Of a stretch of 33,994 nucleotides of DNA, positions 1,440-30,680 are shown in pieces. The DNA comes from a virus (taxonomy: Duplodnaviria > Heunggongvirae > Uroviricota > Caudoviricetes). A model generated the notes under the pieces. The model searched no databases, was not told where the DNA came from, and was given only the letters and a program-made list of their open reading frames with translations. Both the position numbers and the translations under genes were made by a program. The stretch's first letter is position 1. Every line of letters starts with the position of its first letter. The stretch is taken from the IMG/VR virus record IMGVR_UViG_2802429241_000004. One strand, given 5' to 3'.

Positions 1440-1446
1440 CTGTTTC

Positions 1447-1533
1447 GCTGAAAAACATAACCCATAAAATGCTAGCTGTACCAGGAACCACCTCCTTAGC
1501 CTGTGTAATCTCCCTTACACGGGCTTATTTTTT
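1447..1533 (+). ncRNA. cyaR: CyaR (RyeE) small regulatory RNA, about 87 nt, with intrinsic terminator (stem 1499-1524, U-tract 1528-1533)
   Basis: Sequence GCTGAAAAACATAACCCATAAAATGCTAGCTGTACCAGGAACCACCTCCTTAGCCTGTGTAATCTCCCTTACACGGGCTTATTTTTT matches my recollection of E. coli CyaR; it lies in the expected place downstream of yegQ and ends in a hairpin plus T6. Confidence 0.7.
1507..1533. other. P2-type attachment site core (attR copy), overlapping the cyaR terminator
   Basis: AATCTCCCTTACACGGGCTTATTTTTT is the reverse complement of the 27-nt P2 att core as I recall it (AAAAAATAAGCCCGTGTAAGGGAGATT); it sits exactly at the host/prophage junction next to ogr. Confidence 0.55.
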
Positions 1534-1934: not shown

Positions 1935-3098
1935 TCACTCATTATCTTCTGTTTCGTACTCCACATCAGAAAGCCTGACCTCAAGCTCTAAGGACGTCGT
2001 GAAGCCGCTATTATTCAGAAAATGTGTCACCTTAGTGATTGTCCAGTCCTGCTCGTCTATGACGCGCTTAAAGCCTGACACTCTGACCGGTGTTTCCGTG
2101 TAAATATCTGCCCGACCGGTAGCCAGGCTGATGGAGAACTCCGCTACGCCCCGTTGCAGTTTATCCCACTTCGCCTGAGCGGCGCGCATGGCCTGCGCTT
2201 TCGTGGCATATACCGTAGTCAGGGCAAAAACGTTATCAGCCTCACCGGCCATGTATTCACCTTCGCGCGCTTCCGGTACTTTAGGCGCTTTCTTCTGCCT
2301 GACCGGTTTCGCTTTCGGGTGCTCCAGTGCGCGCAGGTGTTTTTCTTTCTTTTTGCGTTTCAGTTTTACCTTCTGCTTTTGCGGCTTCGGGTCTTTGGTG
2401 TGTAACCACTTTGCCGTTACGCCGGTGTAAGCTCCACGGTCAGCAATCGCAAAATGATGACGGTCGCCGTCGCTGCGGGTGATGGTAATCTGCGGGATTT
2501 TTTTACCGCTGGCCGTCACCCCCTGCCCCGCTTTGAGAAACAGCAGTTTTCCCATTTTTACCGACACCTCACCGCCGTTGCGTTCAGCAAGACGGGTCAG
2601 GAATTTCGCATCAGACTCCTGCGACTGGTCGATGTGCGGGACTTTAATTCCGGCCAGTGACGGAGCGACACTGGCCTCCAGCTTGTTACGGGAGGCTATC
2701 GCCTCAACAATCGCACCGAGTGTGGTGTCATGCCAGGAGCCTTCCCGGCGGGAATTGAGCGTCCCGCGAAAATCTGCACTCCGGGCGCGGATGGTGACCA
2801 CATCCGGCGCGCCCCGGTGTTCTACCTCATCAACGGTGAATTTCCCTTTGCATACCAGGGCAAAACCTTTCCAGCCGATATACACCGTCAGGACAGCGCC
2901 ACGAACCGGCAGCCCGACCTGCCCGTCGGCATCGTTCAGTTCAATATCAAGCTGGTCAGCCTCAAAGCCCCGGCTATCCGTCAGGGTCATACTCATCAGA
3001 CGGTCGCTGATATTGCCGGTAATATCCCTGCTGTCGAGCATCAGCATGTAATCCGGCGTCAGCGTACTGCCTGCATCAAATGTCAGTGCATCCAGCAT
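1935..3098 (-). CDS. D: tail protein D (387 aa)
   Basis: Position between U and ogr and size match P2 gpD. Confidence 0.8.
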   Translation of the reverse strand: MLDALTFDAGSTLTPDYMLMLDSRDITGNISDRLMSMTLTDSRGFEADQLDIELNDADGQVGLPVRGAVLTVYIGWKGFALVCKGKFTVDEVEHRGAPDVVTIRARSADFRGTLNSRREGSWHDTTLGAIVEAIASRNKLEASVAPSLAGIKVPHIDQSQESDAKFLTRLAERNGGEVSVKMGKLLFLKAGQGVTASGKKIPQITITRSDGDRHHFAIADRGAYTGVTAKWLHTKDPKPQKQKVKLKRKKKEKHLRALEHPKAKPVRQKKAPKVPEAREGEYMAGEADNVFALTTVYATKAQAMRAAQAKWDKLQRGVAEFSISLATGRADIYTETPVRVSGFKRVIDEQDWTITKVTHFLNNSGFTTSLELEVRLSDVEYETEDNE

Positions 3099-3577
3099 TA
3101 TCCCGCCCCCGTCATACCCGTGAATTTAGTCGCCATACTGCCAGCCTTACCGATGAGCGATTCCGCCTGTTTACCGATATCGCCATAAAGCGCGGCCAGT
3201 GATTCATCAACGCGGGTGAGCGACAGCGTAAAATCAATTTTTCGGGGTGTGCCGTCTGCAAAGAAAATACTCCCTGTTTCACTCACCCTGCTGATGACAT
3301 ACATGCCGTAAATCATGCCGGTGCCATCCAGCAACGGCCACGCCCGGCCTTCCTCAGCCATCAGCCTGAGCGTGGTCATCGTCAGCTTGCCGCCGGTCAG
3401 TTCGGGATAAAGCACACCGGCAAGCGTGATGTTTTCCTCACCCACACCGAGAAACTGGTAGGCCTCCTGTTTACCGATACGGGAATTTGACGGCCAGCGA
3501 TAATCTGATTCACGCTGCATGGTCTGGTGTGGCAGCGTCTGGCGCATAAAAACAAACATACCTAACGCGAGCATCAT
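3098..3577 (-). CDS. U: tail protein U (159 aa)
   Basis: Size and position match P2 gpU; stop overlaps the D start. Confidence 0.8.
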   Translation of the reverse strand: MMLALGMFVFMRQTLPHQTMQRESDYRWPSNSRIGKQEAYQFLGVGEENITLAGVLYPELTGGKLTMTTLRLMAEEGRAWPLLDGTGMIYGMYVISRVSETGSIFFADGTPRKIDFTLSLTRVDESLAALYGDIGKQAESLIGKAGSMATKFTGMTGAG

Positions 3578-23918: not shown

Positions 23919-24952
23919 TGAGCAAGAAAAAAGGGAAAACACCGCGACCTGCGGCAAAAACAATCACCGCCAGCGCCCCGAAAATGGAGGCATTCACCTT
24001 TGGCGAGCCGGTGCCGGTACTCGACCGCCGTGACATTCTGGATTATGTCGAGTGCATCAGTAACGGCAGATGGTATGAGCCACCGGTCAGCTTTACCGGT
24101 CTGGCAAAAAGCCTGCGTGCTGCCGTGCATCACAGCTCACCGATTTACGTCAAACGTAATATTCTGGCCTCGACATTTATCCCGCATCCGTGGCTTTCCC
24201 AGCAGGATTTCAGCCGCTTTGTGCTGGATTTTCTGGTGTTCGGTAATGCGTTTCTGGAAAAGCGTTACAGCACCACCGGTAAGGTCATCAGACTGGAAAC
24301 CTCACCGGCAAAATATACCCGCCGTGGCGTGGAGGAGGATGTTTACTGGTGGGTGCCGTCCTTCAACGAGCCGACAGCCTTCACGCCCGGCTCCGTGTTT
24401 CACCTGCTGGAGCCGGATATTAATCAGGAGCTGTACGGCCTGCCGGAATATCTCAGCGCCCTTAACTCTGCCTGGCTGAATGAGTCGGCCACGCTGTTCC
24501 GCCGCAAGTATTACGAAAACGGCGCTCATGCCGGATACATTATGTACGTCACCGATGCCGTGCAGGATCGCAACGATATCGAAATGCTTCGCGAAAACAT
24601 GGTCAAGTCGAAAGGCCGCAACAACTTTAAAAATCTGTTTCTCTATGCCCCACAGGGGAAAGCCGACGGTATTAAAATTATCCCCCTCAGTGAAGTGGCA
24701 ACGAAGGACGATTTTTTTAATATCAAAAAAGCCAGCGCCGCTGACCTGCTGGACGCGCACCGCATCCCCTTTCAGTTGATGGGCGGCAAGCCGGAGAACG
24801 TCGGATCGCTGGGTGATATTGAGAAAGTGGCAAAGGTCTTTGTCCGCAATGAGCTTATCCCGTTACAGGACAGGATTCGGGAAATAAACGACTGGCTCGG
24901 TCAGGAGGTCATCCGCTTTAAAAACTACTCACTGGACACTGACAACGGCTGA
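23918..24952 (+). CDS. Q: portal protein Q
   Basis: 344-aa protein starting MSKKKGKTPRPAAKT, overlapping the P stop (ATGA), last gene before cos. Confidence 0.85.
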   Translation: MSKKKGKTPRPAAKTITASAPKMEAFTFGEPVPVLDRRDILDYVECISNGRWYEPPVSFTGLAKSLRAAVHHSSPIYVKRNILASTFIPHPWLSQQDFSRFVLDFLVFGNAFLEKRYSTTGKVIRLETSPAKYTRRGVEEDVYWWVPSFNEPTAFTPGSVFHLLEPDINQELYGLPEYLSALNSAWLNESATLFRRKYYENGAHAGYIMYVTDAVQDRNDIEMLRENMVKSKGRNNFKNLFLYAPQGKADGIKIIPLSEVATKDDFFNIKKASAADLLDAHRIPFQLMGGKPENVGSLGDIEKVAKVFVRNELIPLQDRIREINDWLGQEVIRFKNYSLDTDNG

Positions 24953-24957
24953 ACATC

Positions 24958-24979
24958 GCCGCCTGCGGGCGGCTTTTTT
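24958..24979 (+). terminator. intrinsic terminator after Q (GCCGCC-tgcg-GGCGGC followed by T6)
   Basis: Perfect GC stem 24958-24973 followed by TTTTTT at 24974-24979, 6 bp after the Q stop. Confidence 0.7.
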
Positions 24980-25121
24980 ACACCCCGTCATCACGCCCTC
25001 ACACGCTCACCTCCACGCAAAACAGCCCGCAGACAAACCAACGCCCCGGCACACAATCTAAACGCCATCACGACGCGCTCAGACGCTGAAAAAATAAAAT
25101 CAGCACCACCGCCAGCGCGCA

Positions 25122-25140
25122 GTGCTTTCCCCGCCTCGCC
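25122..25140. other. cos cohesive-end site (19 nt)
   Basis: GTGCTTTCCCCGCCTCGCC is the reverse complement of the P2 cohesive end as I recall it (GGCGAGGCGGGGAAAGCAC); located just after Q as expected. Confidence 0.6.
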
Positions 25141-25289
25141 CGCCCGCTTCATGAAGCGGTTTGAATGCAGTTGTATACCGACGCAGACTTCCTGCCAGTT
25201 CTAGCTACTCATAACAAAAAAAAACATTACAGATGAATGCAAAATCATGCAACTAATGAAGGCGTACAGGCTAGGTGAGAAAATAAATG

Positions 25290-26090
25290 CTATTTCATCA
25301 GTCCTATAAAAGCTGCTGTCATGCTACCCAATGCACCAATAGCAGCAAATAACGTTGCCCAAAACATGCTTTTTTGGCTACGAATATTCTCATTATATCG
25401 TTGTTCTTCATTATTGAAGTGATTTAACGTATTAATTGCTTTTCCAGTGGGCTTATAACCATCTCGAGTCTTTGAAATGTCCCCACTCTCTACAAGGGAA
25501 TCCAGACATAAGCGAAGTTCTTTTATGAGTCGAGAATAATCATCATGGTAGATCCATAAACGTCCTGCCACATCATTCATAATTAGAGTCTCACTGAATG
25601 GTTTTTCCCCTTGCTGCTCTCGATAAATTCTGACAATTGCAGCCAATACCGTCATTACATCGGTTATCTCCTGCTTGCGTTGTCGATACAAATACTTCTC
25701 ACGACTTAGCTTTTTATTTTGACGATTCGCTATTCTTCTAAATCTAAGCACATTAAAAAAAGATAAGTCGTCCAATGAGTCAAACTTCAATTCATGCGCA
25801 TGATAATAATAAATTCCAGAAAAGGAATTTGATGTAAGTCGTTCTGGTTTAAGAATTGTATCAATATTGAAAGTTTTATTCTGATGATTCCACTTCTTAA
25901 CCTTTATAATTCCGTTTGAATAACTATCAAAAAGATAGTCATTACCCTCGTCATCCTTAATGTAAACGGAATACATATCGTAATGAATGGCACTCTCATA
26001 CATTAAACTAATTTTGCCATTTTCAGGAGTCTTCTTTGACTCAAAAACTTTTAGAAACTTTACAACATCAACTTTATTTTTATACCTCAT
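25290..26090 (-). CDS. hypothetical tail-anchored membrane protein (266 aa, single C-terminal TM helix); candidate effector of the RT system
   Basis: AT-rich ORF directly downstream of the RT gene on the same strand; C-terminus MFWATLFAAIGALGSMTAAFIGLMK is a predicted TM helix; N-terminal domain has no motif I recognise. Confidence 0.6.
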   Translation of the reverse strand: MRYKNKVDVVKFLKVFESKKTPENGKISLMYESAIHYDMYSVYIKDDEGNDYLFDSYSNGIIKVKKWNHQNKTFNIDTILKPERLTSNSFSGIYYYHAHELKFDSLDDLSFFNVLRFRRIANRQNKKLSREKYLYRQRKQEITDVMTVLAAIVRIYREQQGEKPFSETLIMNDVAGRLWIYHDDYSRLIKELRLCLDSLVESGDISKTRDGYKPTGKAINTLNHFNNEEQRYNENIRSQKSMFWATLFAAIGALGSMTAAFIGLMK

Positions 26091-26255
26091 ACATTCAGCC
26101 TTGACTGTAAACCACCATATTAAATTATTGCACTAACGACTCGTACCACTTATTGTTCAACCCAGTCAGAATTGAAAGCAAACTTCTGCACTAACTGGGT
26201 TACCATCATAATATATCGATACTAATAAAATCCGATATCATTATATTTTAGTGTA

Positions 26256-27206
26256 TTAAACCGATGTATTTGCTTTCAACGTCAATACTTTCGATCTGTA
26301 ACGTTTTTCAATAACCCCCATTGAATATAAACGACCAAATAATTTCTTTGCTGTTCTTGTATCTTTAGCTTGTTCTACATCTTTTATTATTTTCCAAAGC
26401 TCTATTTCTCTAGCCATAAGATAATGCTGTTCGTTCCTAACCTTTAAGCTATCCCCAAATACTATAACTCCTGTCACCAGTTTAGGCTTATCCCCAGCAT
26501 ATAATTTCGTTTTAGTTGGATGCATCACGTGTCCATGCTTATTAATAATCTTACGAATCACGCTGCAAAACAATCGATTTACATTATCTCCAGAAAAAGT
26601 AAGATCATCGACATAAACTGTCATTTTCACACGAAACTTCTCACAAAGTTGATTCATTTCATCAAACATTCTGGAATTTGCAAAATATGCTAATGGCATA
26701 CTAATCCGACTACCCGTTGGCAATCGTTCATGACAGGTACATATATGAGATAAAATATCAGCCACATCTGGCGACATTTTCATTATTGAGAAAAAGAAAG
26801 AAAATATCATTTCTCTTGTTGTTGACGGAAAAAAAGATTTAATATCTGTAGTCATCAACTTCTGATGATTGAGATGTGCTTTAGCATTTGTTATGTTAGA
26901 GCAACTTTTTTTACCAGAGTGCAAATACTCTGGCATAGCTATACGCAATAATAAACTCGCAATACGTGTATGCACTACATCTAATTTTTCTAAAGGCTTT
27001 TGTATTTTCCGTATTTTATTTTTTTTAGAAAGCTGTTCAAAAATAGAGTAATTACCCTCATCCCTCTTCAAAGCTGATAGATCATTGATACTAACGCAGA
27101 GCAAGCTAGCCAACTTTTTTTTACTTTTAAGTTTATAAAGTGGCGAATCCGTAATAGGATAAGATTTATTTTTAGTTGAAACCTTCAGTTTAATCCTTTT
27201 TTTCAT
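26256..27206 (-). CDS. retron-type reverse transcriptase (316 aa)
   Basis: RT motifs read directly from the translation: NAKAH (NAxxH), DIKSFFPS, LPTGSRISMPLAYFA (QG..SP block), YVDD catalytic box, LVTGVIV (retron VTG). Block order parallels the Ec86 RT as I recall it. Confidence 0.8.
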   Translation of the reverse strand: MKKRIKLKVSTKNKSYPITDSPLYKLKSKKKLASLLCVSINDLSALKRDEGNYSIFEQLSKKNKIRKIQKPLEKLDVVHTRIASLLLRIAMPEYLHSGKKSCSNITNAKAHLNHQKLMTTDIKSFFPSTTREMIFSFFFSIMKMSPDVADILSHICTCHERLPTGSRISMPLAYFANSRMFDEMNQLCEKFRVKMTVYVDDLTFSGDNVNRLFCSVIRKIINKHGHVMHPTKTKLYAGDKPKLVTGVIVFGDSLKVRNEQHYLMAREIELWKIIKDVEQAKDTRTAKKLFGRLYSMGVIEKRYRSKVLTLKANTSV

Positions 27207-27504
27207 TTCTTTTACTTACCCACTCTAGTATATCCAGAACTTTCCCTGCCAGTTTTAAACGTAAACTTTTGGATAACCGTCCTTGTGTCCCTAATGATTC
27301 TGAAAAAAAGACTAAAGAGGATACTGGCATGTCGAAATGGGAAGCATAACGCTGTAAAATATCAATCGACGGCACCCATAGTCCGCTTTCAATCTCTACT
27401 ATTCTGCTTTTTGGAATACCTAAAGATGATGATAAGTCAACTATTGATTCTTTATGGTATTGCCTTATTAAACGAAGGGCTTTATGCAACATAGGCAACT
27501 CCAT
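27190..27504 (-). CDS. XRE/Cro-type helix-turn-helix protein (104 aa)
   Basis: Classic HTH segment ESIVDLSSSLGIPKSRIVEIESGLWVPSIDILQRYASHFDMP; its stop overlaps the RT start by 17 nt. Confidence 0.65.
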   Translation of the reverse strand: MELPMLHKALRLIRQYHKESIVDLSSSLGIPKSRIVEIESGLWVPSIDILQRYASHFDMPVSSLVFFSESLGTQGRLSKSLRLKLAGKVLDILEWVSKRNEKKD

Positions 27505-27528
27505 CTTGTTGAAACTAGGGAGGACGCA

Positions 27529-27684
27529 TTACTCATCTCCCCCTTCAAAGAAGTCAACTGCGCGAGTGATCCAATAAAGTAGTCTAATAAGCCACTTAAT
27601 TACACCCCAAGCGTTAGGAGTCTTCTTTTTCCGGTTTAACTTGTTTTGCGCCTGCTGTTCGTTGGTTACTTTATCATTTTTCAT
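27529..27684 (-). CDS. small hypothetical protein (51 aa) with amphipathic or hydrophobic core
   Basis: Internal ATG at 27682-27684 preceded by a consensus AAGGAG Shine-Dalgarno with 6-nt spacer; product MKNDKVTNEQQAQNKLNRKKKTPNAWGVIKWLIRLLYWITRAVDFFEGGDE. The 97-aa upstream extension is less likely. Confidence 0.4.
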   Translation of the reverse strand: MKNDKVTNEQQAQNKLNRKKKTPNAWGVIKWLIRLLYWITRAVDFFEGGDE

Positions 27685-27786
27685 GACCTGCTCCTTATGT
27701 CCACGGTGTGCAAACGATATGTCTGCTCCAACACCATGGCTCGCCCTCATAAGGATGAGATTGAACAGCACCAGCTCCCTGCTCCA

Positions 27787-27813
27787 CGAACCCTTTGTCG
27801 CCCAAAGGGTTCG
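27787..27813 (-). other. stable hairpin (11-bp perfect stem CGAACCCTTTG / CAAAGGGTTCG, 5-nt loop) within a locally GC-richer structured segment; possible ncRNA element
   Basis: Perfect inverted repeat read directly from the sequence; no flanking T-tract on either strand, so it is not a simple terminator. Confidence 0.35.
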
Positions 27814-28126
27814 AATACCCATACGCTATACCGCTTGAATCAGAGACTCCTGTCGCTGACAGAGGCGTTGCGCGGGGTAAATGTTAGAAAGCATTAGCTT
27901 TCCACGGGCAATAAATACCCAATTGATGGCGATTTATCTCACTAACTAACCAATGATTGAATCATACCAAGTAAACCGTTGTATTTGATCTCTCCTTATA
28001 TAATTTTTTGTTATTAATCAATATAAATAAATAACAAAAAGAAATATAGCTAATTTTCATCCGTCTCATCACAATAAATATCAACAAATCAAGAATATCG
28101 TTTGATTATCTAGTCTTTCCAATTCA

Positions 28127-30415
28127 TTAAAATAAAAACAATGCTTCATCTTCAATTCCCGGCCAAACATCAGCAACCGGATACATGAATTTTTTCCCGT
28201 CATAATTTACGGTCGCGCCACGCGCCAGCGCCTCAAGCTCCCATCGCTGAGGGCTGATACCGTTCTGAGCAAGGTCAACGCGGATACGGGTAATTTGCAT
28301 TCGTTCCGACCTGGTCAGCCTGGCTGATGGCGCTATTTCATGCGGTTTTAACGGGCTTCCGTCTCTTTGCTGACGGTTTGGTGTTCTCAGTCCGTGTTTT
28401 AATGCACCCCTGAGCGCCCTCACGACCTCCGGGTCACTCCATTCGATGACACCGTCATCAACCAGATTAAGCACTGCTGCGGCGTGTTCAGAAGGCGTGG
28501 GAGCCGGTGACGAAGTATCACCACCGGTGAGCTTTCCACAGTTATTGACAGGACTCCGAGGCGCGGCGATGCCGCTTTTTAAAGTCAAAGGCTCAACGAC
28601 CGGAACTTTCGGCACAATGCGCCAGTCCGTCGTTCTGGTGATATGAATATGACGCGCGCCGAGATGCGGCGCGTAAATGCCGACCACTCTCTCGACTTCT
28701 TCCTCGTACTCGTTCACGTCATCCGACGGGCTACGGGCGACCCTGACAGTCTGACAATCGCGCGGGACATTTGCCCCACCCTGCGCGCTGATATACAGCG
28801 CAAAATCGCCACTGTCTGCGGCGGCGCGTGCAGCCTCCACGCGTTCGTCAAATTCATCAGCAATGCTGACGCCGCGAGGCAATTTACGTAGCTCACGGTA
28901 AGCTCCCATTGTCGGCAGGCCAACCGTTTTAAATTGCGGGATGCGCCACGTTGACGCCCATGCGGTAACAGCCGCCGCAGTATCTTTCAGCGGTCTGCCG
29001 GTATCGTTATCGAGCTGACCATCCAGTGCATAGCCGTCGATATTTTTTGAAATGTATTTCGCGATATATCCCGCAGCACCGCCCCGGTTAAGGTGTTTTG
29101 CCTGAAAACGGTTTCGCGCGGCTCCTCTTTCGTCGCCATCCTCTTTGAGCGCATAGCGACGCATGATTTCGATAATCTGGTTACGCTGGCGTGGATTACA
29201 AAAAAGCATCATATGCCAGTGCGGCGTTCCGTCGTGGTGTGGCTCGACGACTCGCAAACCGTAGACCTGTAAATCATTATCCTTGAATGCCGTGCGCATC
29301 AGGCTCCAGATACGGCAGAGATAACGCTGCGCATCCTTTGGATTAAATGCCTCATCATTCCAGCCGTGATTAAGCTGGACGGTTTTATTTTCGCCTTTTC
29401 CAACCTGACGTGTCGGGTGATACTTTGACGGCGCGGTAAGAGTGATAAACATCCCCACATCACCCTCTGAGGCGGCGTAACGCTCAATACCGGCAATGGT
29501 GTTCATCAGCTCCATCCGGCGAATTTCAGGATTAGAAATACTGCCCATCACCTTACTGATAAGGTCGATGCGCTCGCCGGTTTCCCTGTTTTCAAGGTCA
29601 CACGATTTAAGAAACTCCAGATTTGCCTGGCGGCGCGCACGCACATCACGAATGGCATGTTTACTGGCATAAGGAGAACGGTCTTTATTGACCTCCCCGA
29701 CAGCAATCAGTAACGCCTCATGCCAGCGCATACGCTGGCCTTTAAGCTGATGAGTCCACCACTCATCGTTAAACAGACGGGCAATGGCAGAATATGCCTG
29801 CCTCGTGGTTATCTGTCCTTTACGGTATTTTTTCCAGTAGAGCGGGGAAATATTGAAAGCACGTGCAGCGCCAGCAACATGACCATAGAGGTGAGCCTGC
29901 GCCTCATCCGTAAACAGCGATTCTTTTTCGCCATGCGCATCCACCCAGGCATCGCTGAGTTCCTCATACATCATGAAAAGCTGCGATGAGATACGGGCGG
30001 CAAACTTTTTCAGCTCCTTGTCATTCATTCCCGGCAGGCGCGCATACTGGTCGCGCTCTGCCAGAAACAGCAACGACGCGTCGGTGTTCATTTCATGGCG
30101 CTGATTCACGCGCTCAATGCGCGGCCATAAACGACGCTGAAAAGTGGATGTGAGGAAATAAAACCCGTGCACCGGGCTTTTATTGCGCCGGATGTAGTCA
30201 TAGCGTGAAGTAAACAGCGAACGCAAAAAGTAAGGCAGGCGGTTAATCGTGGATAAAACACCTTGCACCTGACGCATCTCGTCACGTGTAAGGGGTCTTT
30301 CGCGCCCGACGGCCTCGCGTGGCGCGTTCCATGCATAAGCACCGGTAAACGTCTTACCGGTGCCTGCGGCAAATGCTGACGGAGGGACAAAATGCCCGGA
30401 GGCTTTAACGGCCAT
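28127..30415 (-). CDS. A: replication initiation protein A (rolling-circle nickase)
   Basis: Large protein matching P2 gpA in size and position; preferred start MAVKASGHFVPP at 30413-30415 (alternative upstream start 30457). Confidence 0.85.
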   Translation of the reverse strand: MAVKASGHFVPPSAFAAGTGKTFTGAYAWNAPREAVGRERPLTRDEMRQVQGVLSTINRLPYFLRSLFTSRYDYIRRNKSPVHGFYFLTSTFQRRLWPRIERVNQRHEMNTDASLLFLAERDQYARLPGMNDKELKKFAARISSQLFMMYEELSDAWVDAHGEKESLFTDEAQAHLYGHVAGAARAFNISPLYWKKYRKGQITTRQAYSAIARLFNDEWWTHQLKGQRMRWHEALLIAVGEVNKDRSPYASKHAIRDVRARRQANLEFLKSCDLENRETGERIDLISKVMGSISNPEIRRMELMNTIAGIERYAASEGDVGMFITLTAPSKYHPTRQVGKGENKTVQLNHGWNDEAFNPKDAQRYLCRIWSLMRTAFKDNDLQVYGLRVVEPHHDGTPHWHMMLFCNPRQRNQIIEIMRRYALKEDGDERGAARNRFQAKHLNRGGAAGYIAKYISKNIDGYALDGQLDNDTGRPLKDTAAAVTAWASTWRIPQFKTVGLPTMGAYRELRKLPRGVSIADEFDERVEAARAAADSGDFALYISAQGGANVPRDCQTVRVARSPSDDVNEYEEEVERVVGIYAPHLGARHIHITRTTDWRIVPKVPVVEPLTLKSGIAAPRSPVNNCGKLTGGDTSSPAPTPSEHAAAVLNLVDDGVIEWSDPEVVRALRGALKHGLRTPNRQQRDGSPLKPHEIAPSARLTRSERMQITRIRVDLAQNGISPQRWELEALARGATVNYDGKKFMYPVADVWPGIEDEALFLF

Positions 30416-30680
30416 GTGAGCCAAAAGCCTCTGAACAACGCTTGCTGAGTTGCTCAACCTGAGCGTTTAAATCAGCAAAAGATTTTGCGTTTCCGGTCAG
30501 AATATCGTGATGCATCATGCCGGAAACGAGCTGGCTTAATTTCGGGTAATAACCAACCACCGCCAGCCATTCCTGACCGGCGTTTTTACCGCTTTCCGCT
30601 CTTTTTTTCTCGTGGAGAATAAACTGAAAGCTGTCACTGGTAACGACATAACGTTCGCCAATTTCGATACGAATACTCAT
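30405..30680 (-). CDS. P2 orf83-like hypothetical protein (91 aa)
   Basis: Small ORF immediately upstream of A in the early operon. Confidence 0.6.
   Translation of the reverse strand: MSIRIEIGERYVVTSDSFQFILHEKKRAESGKNAGQEWLAVVGYYPKLSQLVSGMMHHDILTGNAKSFADLNAQVEQLSKRCSEAFGSHGR

Follow-up and report, generated by a model that had tools for sequence, protein, structure and literature searches.

The 33,994-nucleotide (nt) stretch of DNA analyzed here, referred to as the window, is identical in sequence over its 34 kb to Escherichia coli 65COLEC (NZ_CP070914.1). It is an E. coli P2-like prophage in which a retron occupies the cargo hotspot, and the element under study is the noncoding RNA (ncRNA) of that retron. 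The capsid, terminase, and portal genes lie on the left, replication gene A (Pfam Phage_GPA, E = 1.4e-123) lies at 28127–30457, and an AT-rich island separates the portal/cos end from gene A. The minus strand of this island carries a Type VI retron in the order ncRNA, small protein (SP), helix-turn-helix (HTH) protein, and reverse transcriptase (RT), with an open reading frame (ORF) of 266 amino acids (25290–26090) beyond the RT gene. The protein-coding features of the retron are as follows.

26256–27206, minus strand: retron reverse transcriptase, 316 amino acids (PADLOC RT_VI, E = 2.4e-106; Pfam RVT_1).
27190–27492, minus strand: HTH gene, 100 amino acids from the ATG at 27492 (PADLOC HTH_VI, E = 2.5e-31).
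27529–27684, minus strand: SP gene, 51 amino acids, embedded in the predicted hybrid RNA described below (RefSeq WP_016233353.1; phrog_15287, E = 1.1e-34).

The next-best PADLOC model for the RT was RT_III-A (E = 7e-45). The catalytic YxDD motif of the enzyme reads YVDD and is invariant across the alignment, and the RT and HTH genes share 17 nt, at the start of the former and the end of the latter. The longest ORF for the HTH protein, a predicted repressor or antitoxin partner, begins at 27504; both RefSeq and alignment with the HTH protein of Retron-Vpa2 from Vibrio parahaemolyticus favor the ATG at 27492. The Vpa2 alignment starts at residue 1, Arg7 is kept in the window protein, and a GGAG sequence (27502–27499) stands 6 nt ahead of this codon, within a ribosome site that the earlier ATG overlaps. 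SP is a predicted toxic effector. Its layout resembles that of the Vpa2 SP, with a basic N-terminal part, a hydrophobic C-terminal helix, and a GGD ending, and homologues were found in the same position in ∼150 loci. The Shine-Dalgarno (SD) sequence AAGGAG (27696–27691) precedes its ATG at 27684 with a spacing of 6 nt.

An initial annotation made from the sequence had tentatively placed the retron ncRNA upstream of the small ORF rather than beside the RT gene, with 27685–27905 as the best candidate, and covariance modeling agrees with this placement. Approximately 200 related loci were assembled from genomes, viral contigs, and metagenomes, in nearly all of which an SP-like ORF immediately precedes the HTH gene. 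Two models, R1 for the core and R2 for the 5′ domain, were trained only on loci with an RT at most 61% identical to that of the window; these came from Vibrio (including Vpa2), Xenorhabdus, Shewanella, and marine metagenomes. Each model gave a single match in the 34-kb window, R1 at 27682–27822 (minus strand, 60.5 bits, E = 1.1e-11) and R2 at 27863–27944 (minus strand, 65.3 bits, E = 2.6e-13). When sequence profiles were made for the 5′ domain and the core, they detected 73 and 62 loci, respectively, out of 131 distinct ones, and the distance to the start of SP was fixed. Within the Enterobacterales, the non-coding stretch retains 70–86% nucleotide identity from ∼27975–27941 to the HTH start and matches the genes in its degree of conservation. 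The initial annotation had regarded a position away from the RT gene as non-canonical; upstream of SP is the standard Type VI layout (10.1101/2025.10.22.683967; 10.64898/2026.04.27.721009).

The stretch also has the GC-richer composition that had been ascribed to it, 27700–27899 being 52.5% GC compared with 28–39% in the rest of the island. When folded as the minus strand, 27685–27834 was more stable than dinucleotide shuffles (z = −4.2), as were 27505–27990 (z = −4.6) and 27787–27881 (z = −5.2). The RNA structure of this stretch exceeds chance. Searches with the curated Rfam retron RNA families gave no match at gathering score in the window, and at a permissive threshold only chance-level matches (E up to 10) were obtained in 24900–28300. 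When RNAalifold was applied to an unfitted MAFFT alignment of distant loci, helix P4 alone was recovered.

The features assigned to the RNA, all on the minus strand, are listed below in approximate 5′ to 3′ order; the predicted hybrid RNA is abbreviated hyRNA, and IR denotes an inverted repeat.

27961–27969, minus strand: candidate extended −10 promoter, TGgTATGAT, a TGnTAxxAT-like box kept in relatives.
27499–27956, minus strand: predicted hyRNA of ∼460 nt, SP gene included (conservation, minimum free energy (MFE) folding, and 86 pairs examined on 36 loci).
27936–27956, minus strand: leader, with arm a at 27953–27944 and arm b at 27941–27936.
27906–27920, minus strand: P1, msr-like hairpin (GGGTA/TGCCC), within the R2 match at 27863–27944.
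27885–27904, minus strand: P2, msr-like hairpin (TGGAAAGC/GCTTTCTA), the GAAAGC hairpin, 96.7% paired.
27787–27881, minus strand: predicted msd (reverse-transcription template), P3 plus P4 (MFE −42.6 kcal/mol, z = −5.2).
27817–27878, minus strand: P3, long stem with a conserved base and a variable tip.
27787–27813, minus strand: P4, perfect 11-bp hairpin, the msd stem-loop, with repeat copy 1 GGGCGAC (27803–27797) in and around its loop.
27775–27786, minus strand: IR1, a1-like arm directly 3′ of the msd, pairing with IR2.
27763–27770, minus strand: arm c, conserved TGCTGTTC motif, pairing with the SP codons GAACAGCA.
27691–27761, minus strand: riboregulator, comprising ATCTCA (27761–27756), the anti-SD arm, repeat copy 2, P6, and the SD.
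27510–27522, minus strand: IR2, a2-like arm (CTCCCTaGTTTCA) just past the SP stop codon, in a strongly conserved intergenic stretch.

Read in this direction, the hyRNA comprises the leader, the msr-like hairpins, the msd, IR1, the riboregulator, the SP coding sequence, IR2, and the HTH ribosome site at ∼27499, a layout in agreement with that of the Vpa2 hyRNA of ∼470 nt. The structured ncRNA lies directly 5′ of the SP coding sequence, and we infer that the two form one continuous transcript. Of the extent first proposed, 27685–27905 stands as the central non-coding part, but the RNA begins at ∼27956 with the leader and helix P1, and the small ORF that had been taken as its boundary belongs to the same structured transcript. 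The candidate promoter box suggests a transcript start at ∼27957–27953, and nucleotide similarity to more distant relatives starts at 27957–27941. A simple sigma-70 −35/−10 scan did not flag the candidate promoter at 27969–27961 because its −35 element is poor.

In the leader, arm a pairs with SP codons 5–8 (27671–27662; helix a:f), and arm b pairs with ATCTCA at 27761–27756 (helix b:d). Between arm b and P1 is a nearly invariant UCGCCA, within which G27930 is the same in every one of the 36 loci aligned; no partner with which this segment could pair was found, and G27930 is not at a helix junction. This residue could be a protein contact or a priming residue. The GAAAGC-atta-GCTTTC element noted initially is present at 27887–27902 as the core of P2, and the perfect 11-bp inverted repeat (27787–27797/27803–27813, 5-nt loop) is P4. 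A 5-bp CTGTC/GACAG hairpin is likewise present, at 27850–27862. The P3 tip is the sole hypervariable, indel-rich segment of the RNA and varies freely. Its sequence is almost wholly different between lineages, and the stem base is kept. In this lineage and in the O157-type one, the tip (27836–27862) is ∼17 nt shorter than in other Enterobacterales lineages.

IR1 and IR2 form 12 bp with one bulge, so that an a1/a2-like inverted repeat (27786–27775 with 27522–27510) is present and spans SP. No such pair had been found by eye, because its second arm lies beyond the small ORF. Next to IR1, arm c pairs with GAACAGCA at 27660–27653, the Glu-Gln-Gln region of SP (helix c:g). In the riboregulator, the anti-SD TCCTTATG (27755–27748) pairs over 8 bp with CATAAGGA (27699–27692), which overlaps the SD, and this helix, P5, encloses repeat copy 2 GGGCGAG (27746–27740) and hairpin P6 (27739–27731:27709–27701). 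Both GGGCGA copies, one in the P4 loop and one between P5 and P6, are conserved across 32–36 loci; this repeat, GGGCGA(C/G) at 27803–27797 and 27746–27740, was absent from the repeats first listed. Those that were listed do exist (TCCACGG at 27700 and 27901; AATACCCA at 27814 and 27914, the last having been given as 27913), but neither TCCACGG nor AATACCC is retained in relatives, and both seem to be accidental.

Pairing was assessed for 86 pairs in 12 helices on an unfitted alignment, a plain MAFFT alignment of 36 full-length loci that was not fitted to the structure. Here, 82.4% of the pairs were complementary, compared with 72.1% for shuffled partners and 41–53% for slid partners. Double changes numbered 343 against 136 in the control, and the covariation score of 0.337, compared with 0.177, was reached in none of 500 shuffles. 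For P1 and P2 together, a model-fitted alignment of 61 distinct sequences gave 97% pairing (39–59% when slid) and 159 cells changed on both sides (46 in shuffles). Individually, P1 was 97.4% paired in the 61 sequences, with four of five pairs changed on both sides; P2 was 96.7% paired, with five of seven.

For P4, 25 distinct arm combinations were observed, all of which pair. The mean energy of an arm with its own partner was −14.7 kcal/mol, compared with −6.0 kcal/mol when partners were swapped (0/500), and 8 of the 11 pairs had changed on both sides in the 36 loci. The long-range helices behaved in the same way. IR1:IR2 was 91.1% paired, and both sides had changed in 8 of its 12 pairs (0/500 permutations equal), and c:g, helix 9 of the set, was 100% paired in the 36 loci with 7 of 8 pairs so changed (0/1000). 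On the unfitted alignment, pairing was 71.8% for a:f (helix 1; 0/1000), 91.2% for b:d (helix 2; 0/500), and 70–78% for helices 10–12 of the riboregulator. Own and swapped energies were −7.8 and −4.1 kcal/mol for P5 and −7.8 and −2.7 kcal/mol for P6 (0/500 each). In the partner-permutation tests, none of the 500 or 1000 permutations equaled the real pairings of a:f, b:d, P1, P2, P4, IR1:IR2, c:g, P5, and P6. A local hairpin over the SP stop codon (GGGGGAG/CCTCCC), a competitor of IR2, was rejected; it was without covariation (92/1000).

Among the helices supported in this way, a:f and b:d (set A) cross IR1:IR2 and c:g (set B), and both sets show compensatory changes. The crossing implies that the RNA either forms a pseudoknot or alternates between two conformations. 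The unconstrained MFE fold of 27956–27493 (−164.5 kcal/mol) contains P1, P2, P4, P6, IR1:IR2, and c:g in full, and in it the SD pairs with SP codons. When a:f and b:d were forced, the energy was −155.2 kcal/mol, and the anti-SD helix P5 then formed. We tentatively propose, as a possibility that falls well short of an even chance, that the hyRNA is a conserved pseudoknot or two-state switch and does not adopt a simple three-armed fold. In that case, RNA pairing would dictate part of the conserved N-terminal peptide motif of SP (Glu/Asp-Gln-Gln codons), and a change between the A and B sets, for instance during copying of the msd or docking of the msDNA loop on the second GGGCGA, could expose the SD. 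Of the present results, only the crossing helix sets could extend what has been published.

The closest characterized system for comparison is Retron-Vpa2. Its hyRNA of ∼470 nt consists of an msr-msd region fused to the coding sequence of a toxic SP; stems bury both the SD and the start codon, and the 3′ end folds back via an a1/a2-like repeat (10.1101/2025.10.22.683967). The multicopy single-stranded DNA (msDNA) of Vpa2 (86 nt, or 63 nt in a truncated form) appears only upon triggering and is required for SP translation, and a conserved 7-nt direct repeat has one copy in an msd loop and one in the riboregulator (10.1101/2025.10.22.683967). Among the relatives of the window RT, one locus (L206) encodes a 55-amino acid SP with Lys15, Ile39, Phe43, and Phe45 and an HTH protein with Arg7, the residues mutated in the Vpa2 paper, and its SP is identical to the sequence listed for Vpa2 in Table S3 of the Sen3 paper (10.64898/2026.04.27.721009). 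This agreement identifies L206 as the Vpa2 locus.

Retron-Vpa2 has the same order of ncRNA, SP, HTH, and RT as the window, with 53% (RT), 47% (HTH), and 27% (SP) identity. The two RNAs have in common two small 5′ hairpins, a long variable stem, a GGGCGA-type repeat in a hairpin loop, the GTGCTGnTC motif, another copy of the repeat within a fold that sequesters the SD, and a 3′ arm located past SP that folds back to pair beside the msd. They differ in that their nucleotides are only patchily alignable and in the length of SP (51 amino acids in the window, 55 in Vpa2), and the window retron has E. coli as its host and a P2-like prophage hotspot as its carrier. In L206, P3 and P4 span 1817–1902, and these 86 nt agree with the length reported for the full msDNA; the truncated form of 63 nt is obtained when 23 nt are removed from the end formed by P4. 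By homology with this template, the window msd is predicted at ∼27881–27787, with an msDNA of ∼92–95 nt, so that the a1-like arm is IR1 and the a2-like arm IR2, in line with the suggestion of the Vpa2 authors.

By analogy with Retron-Vpa2, a mechanism can be proposed in which the RT and HTH proteins would bind the hyRNA and, in the absence of phage, reverse transcription would be held down and SP left untranslated. Phage recombination or anti-RecBCD functions would then let an msDNA of ∼92–95 nt, copied from P3 and P4, accumulate. The hairpin loop at the 5′ end of this msDNA, complementary to GGGCGA, would dock on the second repeat in the riboregulator and free the SD; SP would be made, and the infected cell would stop growing.

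We therefore read 27685–27905 as the central non-coding part of a Type VI retron hyRNA in a P2-like prophage cargo hotspot, with a probability of roughly 0.85. That the element is a Type VI hyRNA is, taken by itself, very likely, and a mode of action by Vpa2-like translational derepression rather than by a Sen3-like route seems the better supported of the two, on analogy, without being secure. Several observations weigh on the other side. Transcript ends, msDNA, and toxicity at the window locus are all inferred; the E. coli relative Retron-Eco12 has no detectable msDNA; and the Type VI Retron-Sen3 uses a different, post-translational route (10.64898/2026.04.27.721009). Canonical retrons have a branching G, and here the residue opposite the first template base is A27509, with no G at the IR1:IR2 junction. 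Helix P5 is absent from the unconstrained MFE fold and appears only in a conformer 9 kcal/mol less stable. The P3 base did not pass when partners were permuted (106/500 and 43/500), a failure probably due to poor alignment of the variable region. Finally, the shuffle controls ignore phylogeny, although the slid-partner control, which keeps relatedness, was clearly lower.

The most serious competing account accepts the same RNA but has it act in the manner of Retron-Sen3, where single-stranded DNA (ssDNA) and SP are made constitutively, the HTH protein neutralizes SP, and loss of RecBCD releases the toxin; the upstream fold would then be a template and scaffold and not a translational switch. 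Retron-Sen3 is itself Type VI, with the same SP-HTH-RT order. In the Sen3 lineage, the ncRNA lies within ∼280 nt upstream of SP, a repeat flanks SP, and control is post-translational (10.64898/2026.04.27.721009). Likenesses between the window and Sen3 (cluster cl2075) extend to a transcript that continues over SP, IR1 beside the long stem with IR2 past the SP stop, and RNA covariation within the sequence coding for SP, and the absence of P5 from the lowest-energy fold would also suit this account. The proteins differ, however. The Sen3 SP has 79 amino acids with a 25-residue N-terminal extension (cl2075), and the 51-amino acid SP of the window resembles the 55-amino acid Vpa2 SP and is unrelated in sequence to the Sen3/cl2075 protein. 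No resemblance was found between the window SP and the Sen3, Yersinia, and Xenorhabdus SPs of Table S3, which places it outside cl2075. Moreover, the Vpa2 elements are matched one by one in the window, including both GGGCGA repeats and the compensated SD-pairing arm, and neither Retron-Eco12 nor Vpa2 has basal msDNA, unlike the constitutive ssDNA of Sen3. A Sen3-like mode is accordingly judged unlikely, at about one chance in a few.

A second account holds that the stretch is only a structured 5′ untranslated region, a riboregulator of the small ORF, with the template elsewhere or absent. The lack of an Rfam retron family match in the window and of an evident branching G would fit, as would the earlier literature, in that Mestre 2020 found no Type VI ncRNA and six Type VI retrons were without ssDNA in a census. 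Against this, P3 and P4 are homologous to the Vpa2 segment that was mapped as msDNA by Spacer-seq and sequencing, with agreement in the 86-nt length; P3 has the conserved base and freely varying tip typical of msd stems; and the other non-coding gaps of the operon are without structure or conservation. We consider this account improbable.

It is more improbable still that the region is protein-coding, with a 97-amino acid ORF at 27529–27822 as a real gene and the hairpins incidental. The ORF is open in this strain, and its C-terminal half matches phrog_5826 (97 amino acids). However, a 1-nt indel puts the N-terminal extension into another frame in sister lineages, and it contains stops in others, while the nucleotides are conserved; the AAGGAG SD precedes the ATG at 27684, RefSeq calls the 51-amino acid protein, and the changes that occur are compensatory for RNA pairing. 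The phrog_5826 family seems to derive from gene calls that were extended too far, into the ncRNA.

Two other positions offered by the initial annotation, 26091–26255 and 25141–25289, are non-coding gaps on the operon strand, the former with a 12-bp stem, but an ncRNA at either is scarcely credible, with no match from either covariance model, no fold signal (z = −0.37 and +0.96, respectively), no similarity beyond near-identical island copies, and other genes after the RT in the sister E. coli lineage. The 12-bp stem (AACCCAGTTAGT...ACTGACTGGGTT), on the minus strand in the gap between the RT gene and the 266-amino acid ORF, has a long loop and folds no better than shuffles; it may serve the downstream gene as a boundary or a regulatory element.

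In relation to other known systems, Retron-Eco12 is an E. coli Type VI retron, assayed together with Vpa2, that, as a full operon with its own promoter, defends against lambda vir and gives no detectable basal msDNA. It may correspond to the window lineage or to a sister lineage (83–87% identical, in 89 complete E. coli genomes). With the canonical retron Ec86 (Retron-Eco1), the window shares msr-type hairpins, a long msd stem, an inverted repeat at the 3′ end of the template, and an RT with the retron YxDD core. By contrast with Ec86, the window ncRNA is separated from the RT by the SP and HTH genes, its a2-like arm lies 3′ of the embedded toxin gene and not at the 5′ end, its junction shows no branching G, and there is no Rfam match. 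In relatives of the window retron, furthermore, msDNA activates the toxin rather than restraining it.

Of the 5426 complete E. coli genomes, 100 carry the RNA (10 at ≥99% identity, 89 at 80–90%, and 1 at ∼72%). The E. coli copies are always chromosomal, and the sole annotation beneath the RNA is SP, as a “hypothetical protein.” Several P2-like phages of E. coli and Klebsiella also have it, likewise unannotated, and it is present in Peduovirus P22H1. For this prophage retron of E. coli, the missing ncRNA is hereby placed, with base-level coordinates for the template, riboregulator, and long-range pairings, and the locus, where some gene calls mistake the RNA for the N terminus of a 97-amino acid protein, can now be annotated and tested. 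Since elements of this kind were described in preprints of 2025–2026 for Vibrio and Salmonella relatives, the result is a known kind of element correctly placed in a new locus; it confirms and extends existing work and opens no new question.

The 266-amino acid ORF (25290–26090, minus strand), 3′ of the RT gene, matches phrog_7611, a family of unknown function, and has a hydrophobic C-terminal tail; Pfam, PADLOC, and NCBIfam searches gave no match. Homologues 56–72% identical occur in other P2-like prophages in the same hotspot beside the portal gene, where they are partnered by a 243-amino acid protein of unknown function, without a retron or RT. On these grounds, the ORF was rejected as a retron component. 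It looks like separate hotspot cargo and is possibly one half of an uncharacterized two-gene module. A homologue with 37% identity comes after the Type VI retron in Acerihabitans (L004). In the sister E. coli lineage (L002, E. coli O157:H7 FRIK944, 2566–3496), the same P2 hotspot carries an RT that is 81–82% identical, and three different small ORFs follow the retron in place of the 266-amino acid gene, showing that retron-adjacent cargo is exchanged.

Two further features of the window lie outside the retron. At 25006–25152 (minus strand), RefSeq annotates a 48-amino acid “vacuolating cytotoxin domain-containing protein,” for which the Pfam match (E = 0.004) is below the cut-off. This ORF falls within a GC-rich stretch just beyond the portal gene, where the P2-like cos end is expected, and is probably a spurious call. 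Near the left end, outside the prophage late genes, a full-length CyaR/RyeE small RNA gene is found at 1445–1530 (plus strand; Rfam RF00112, 100.7 bits).

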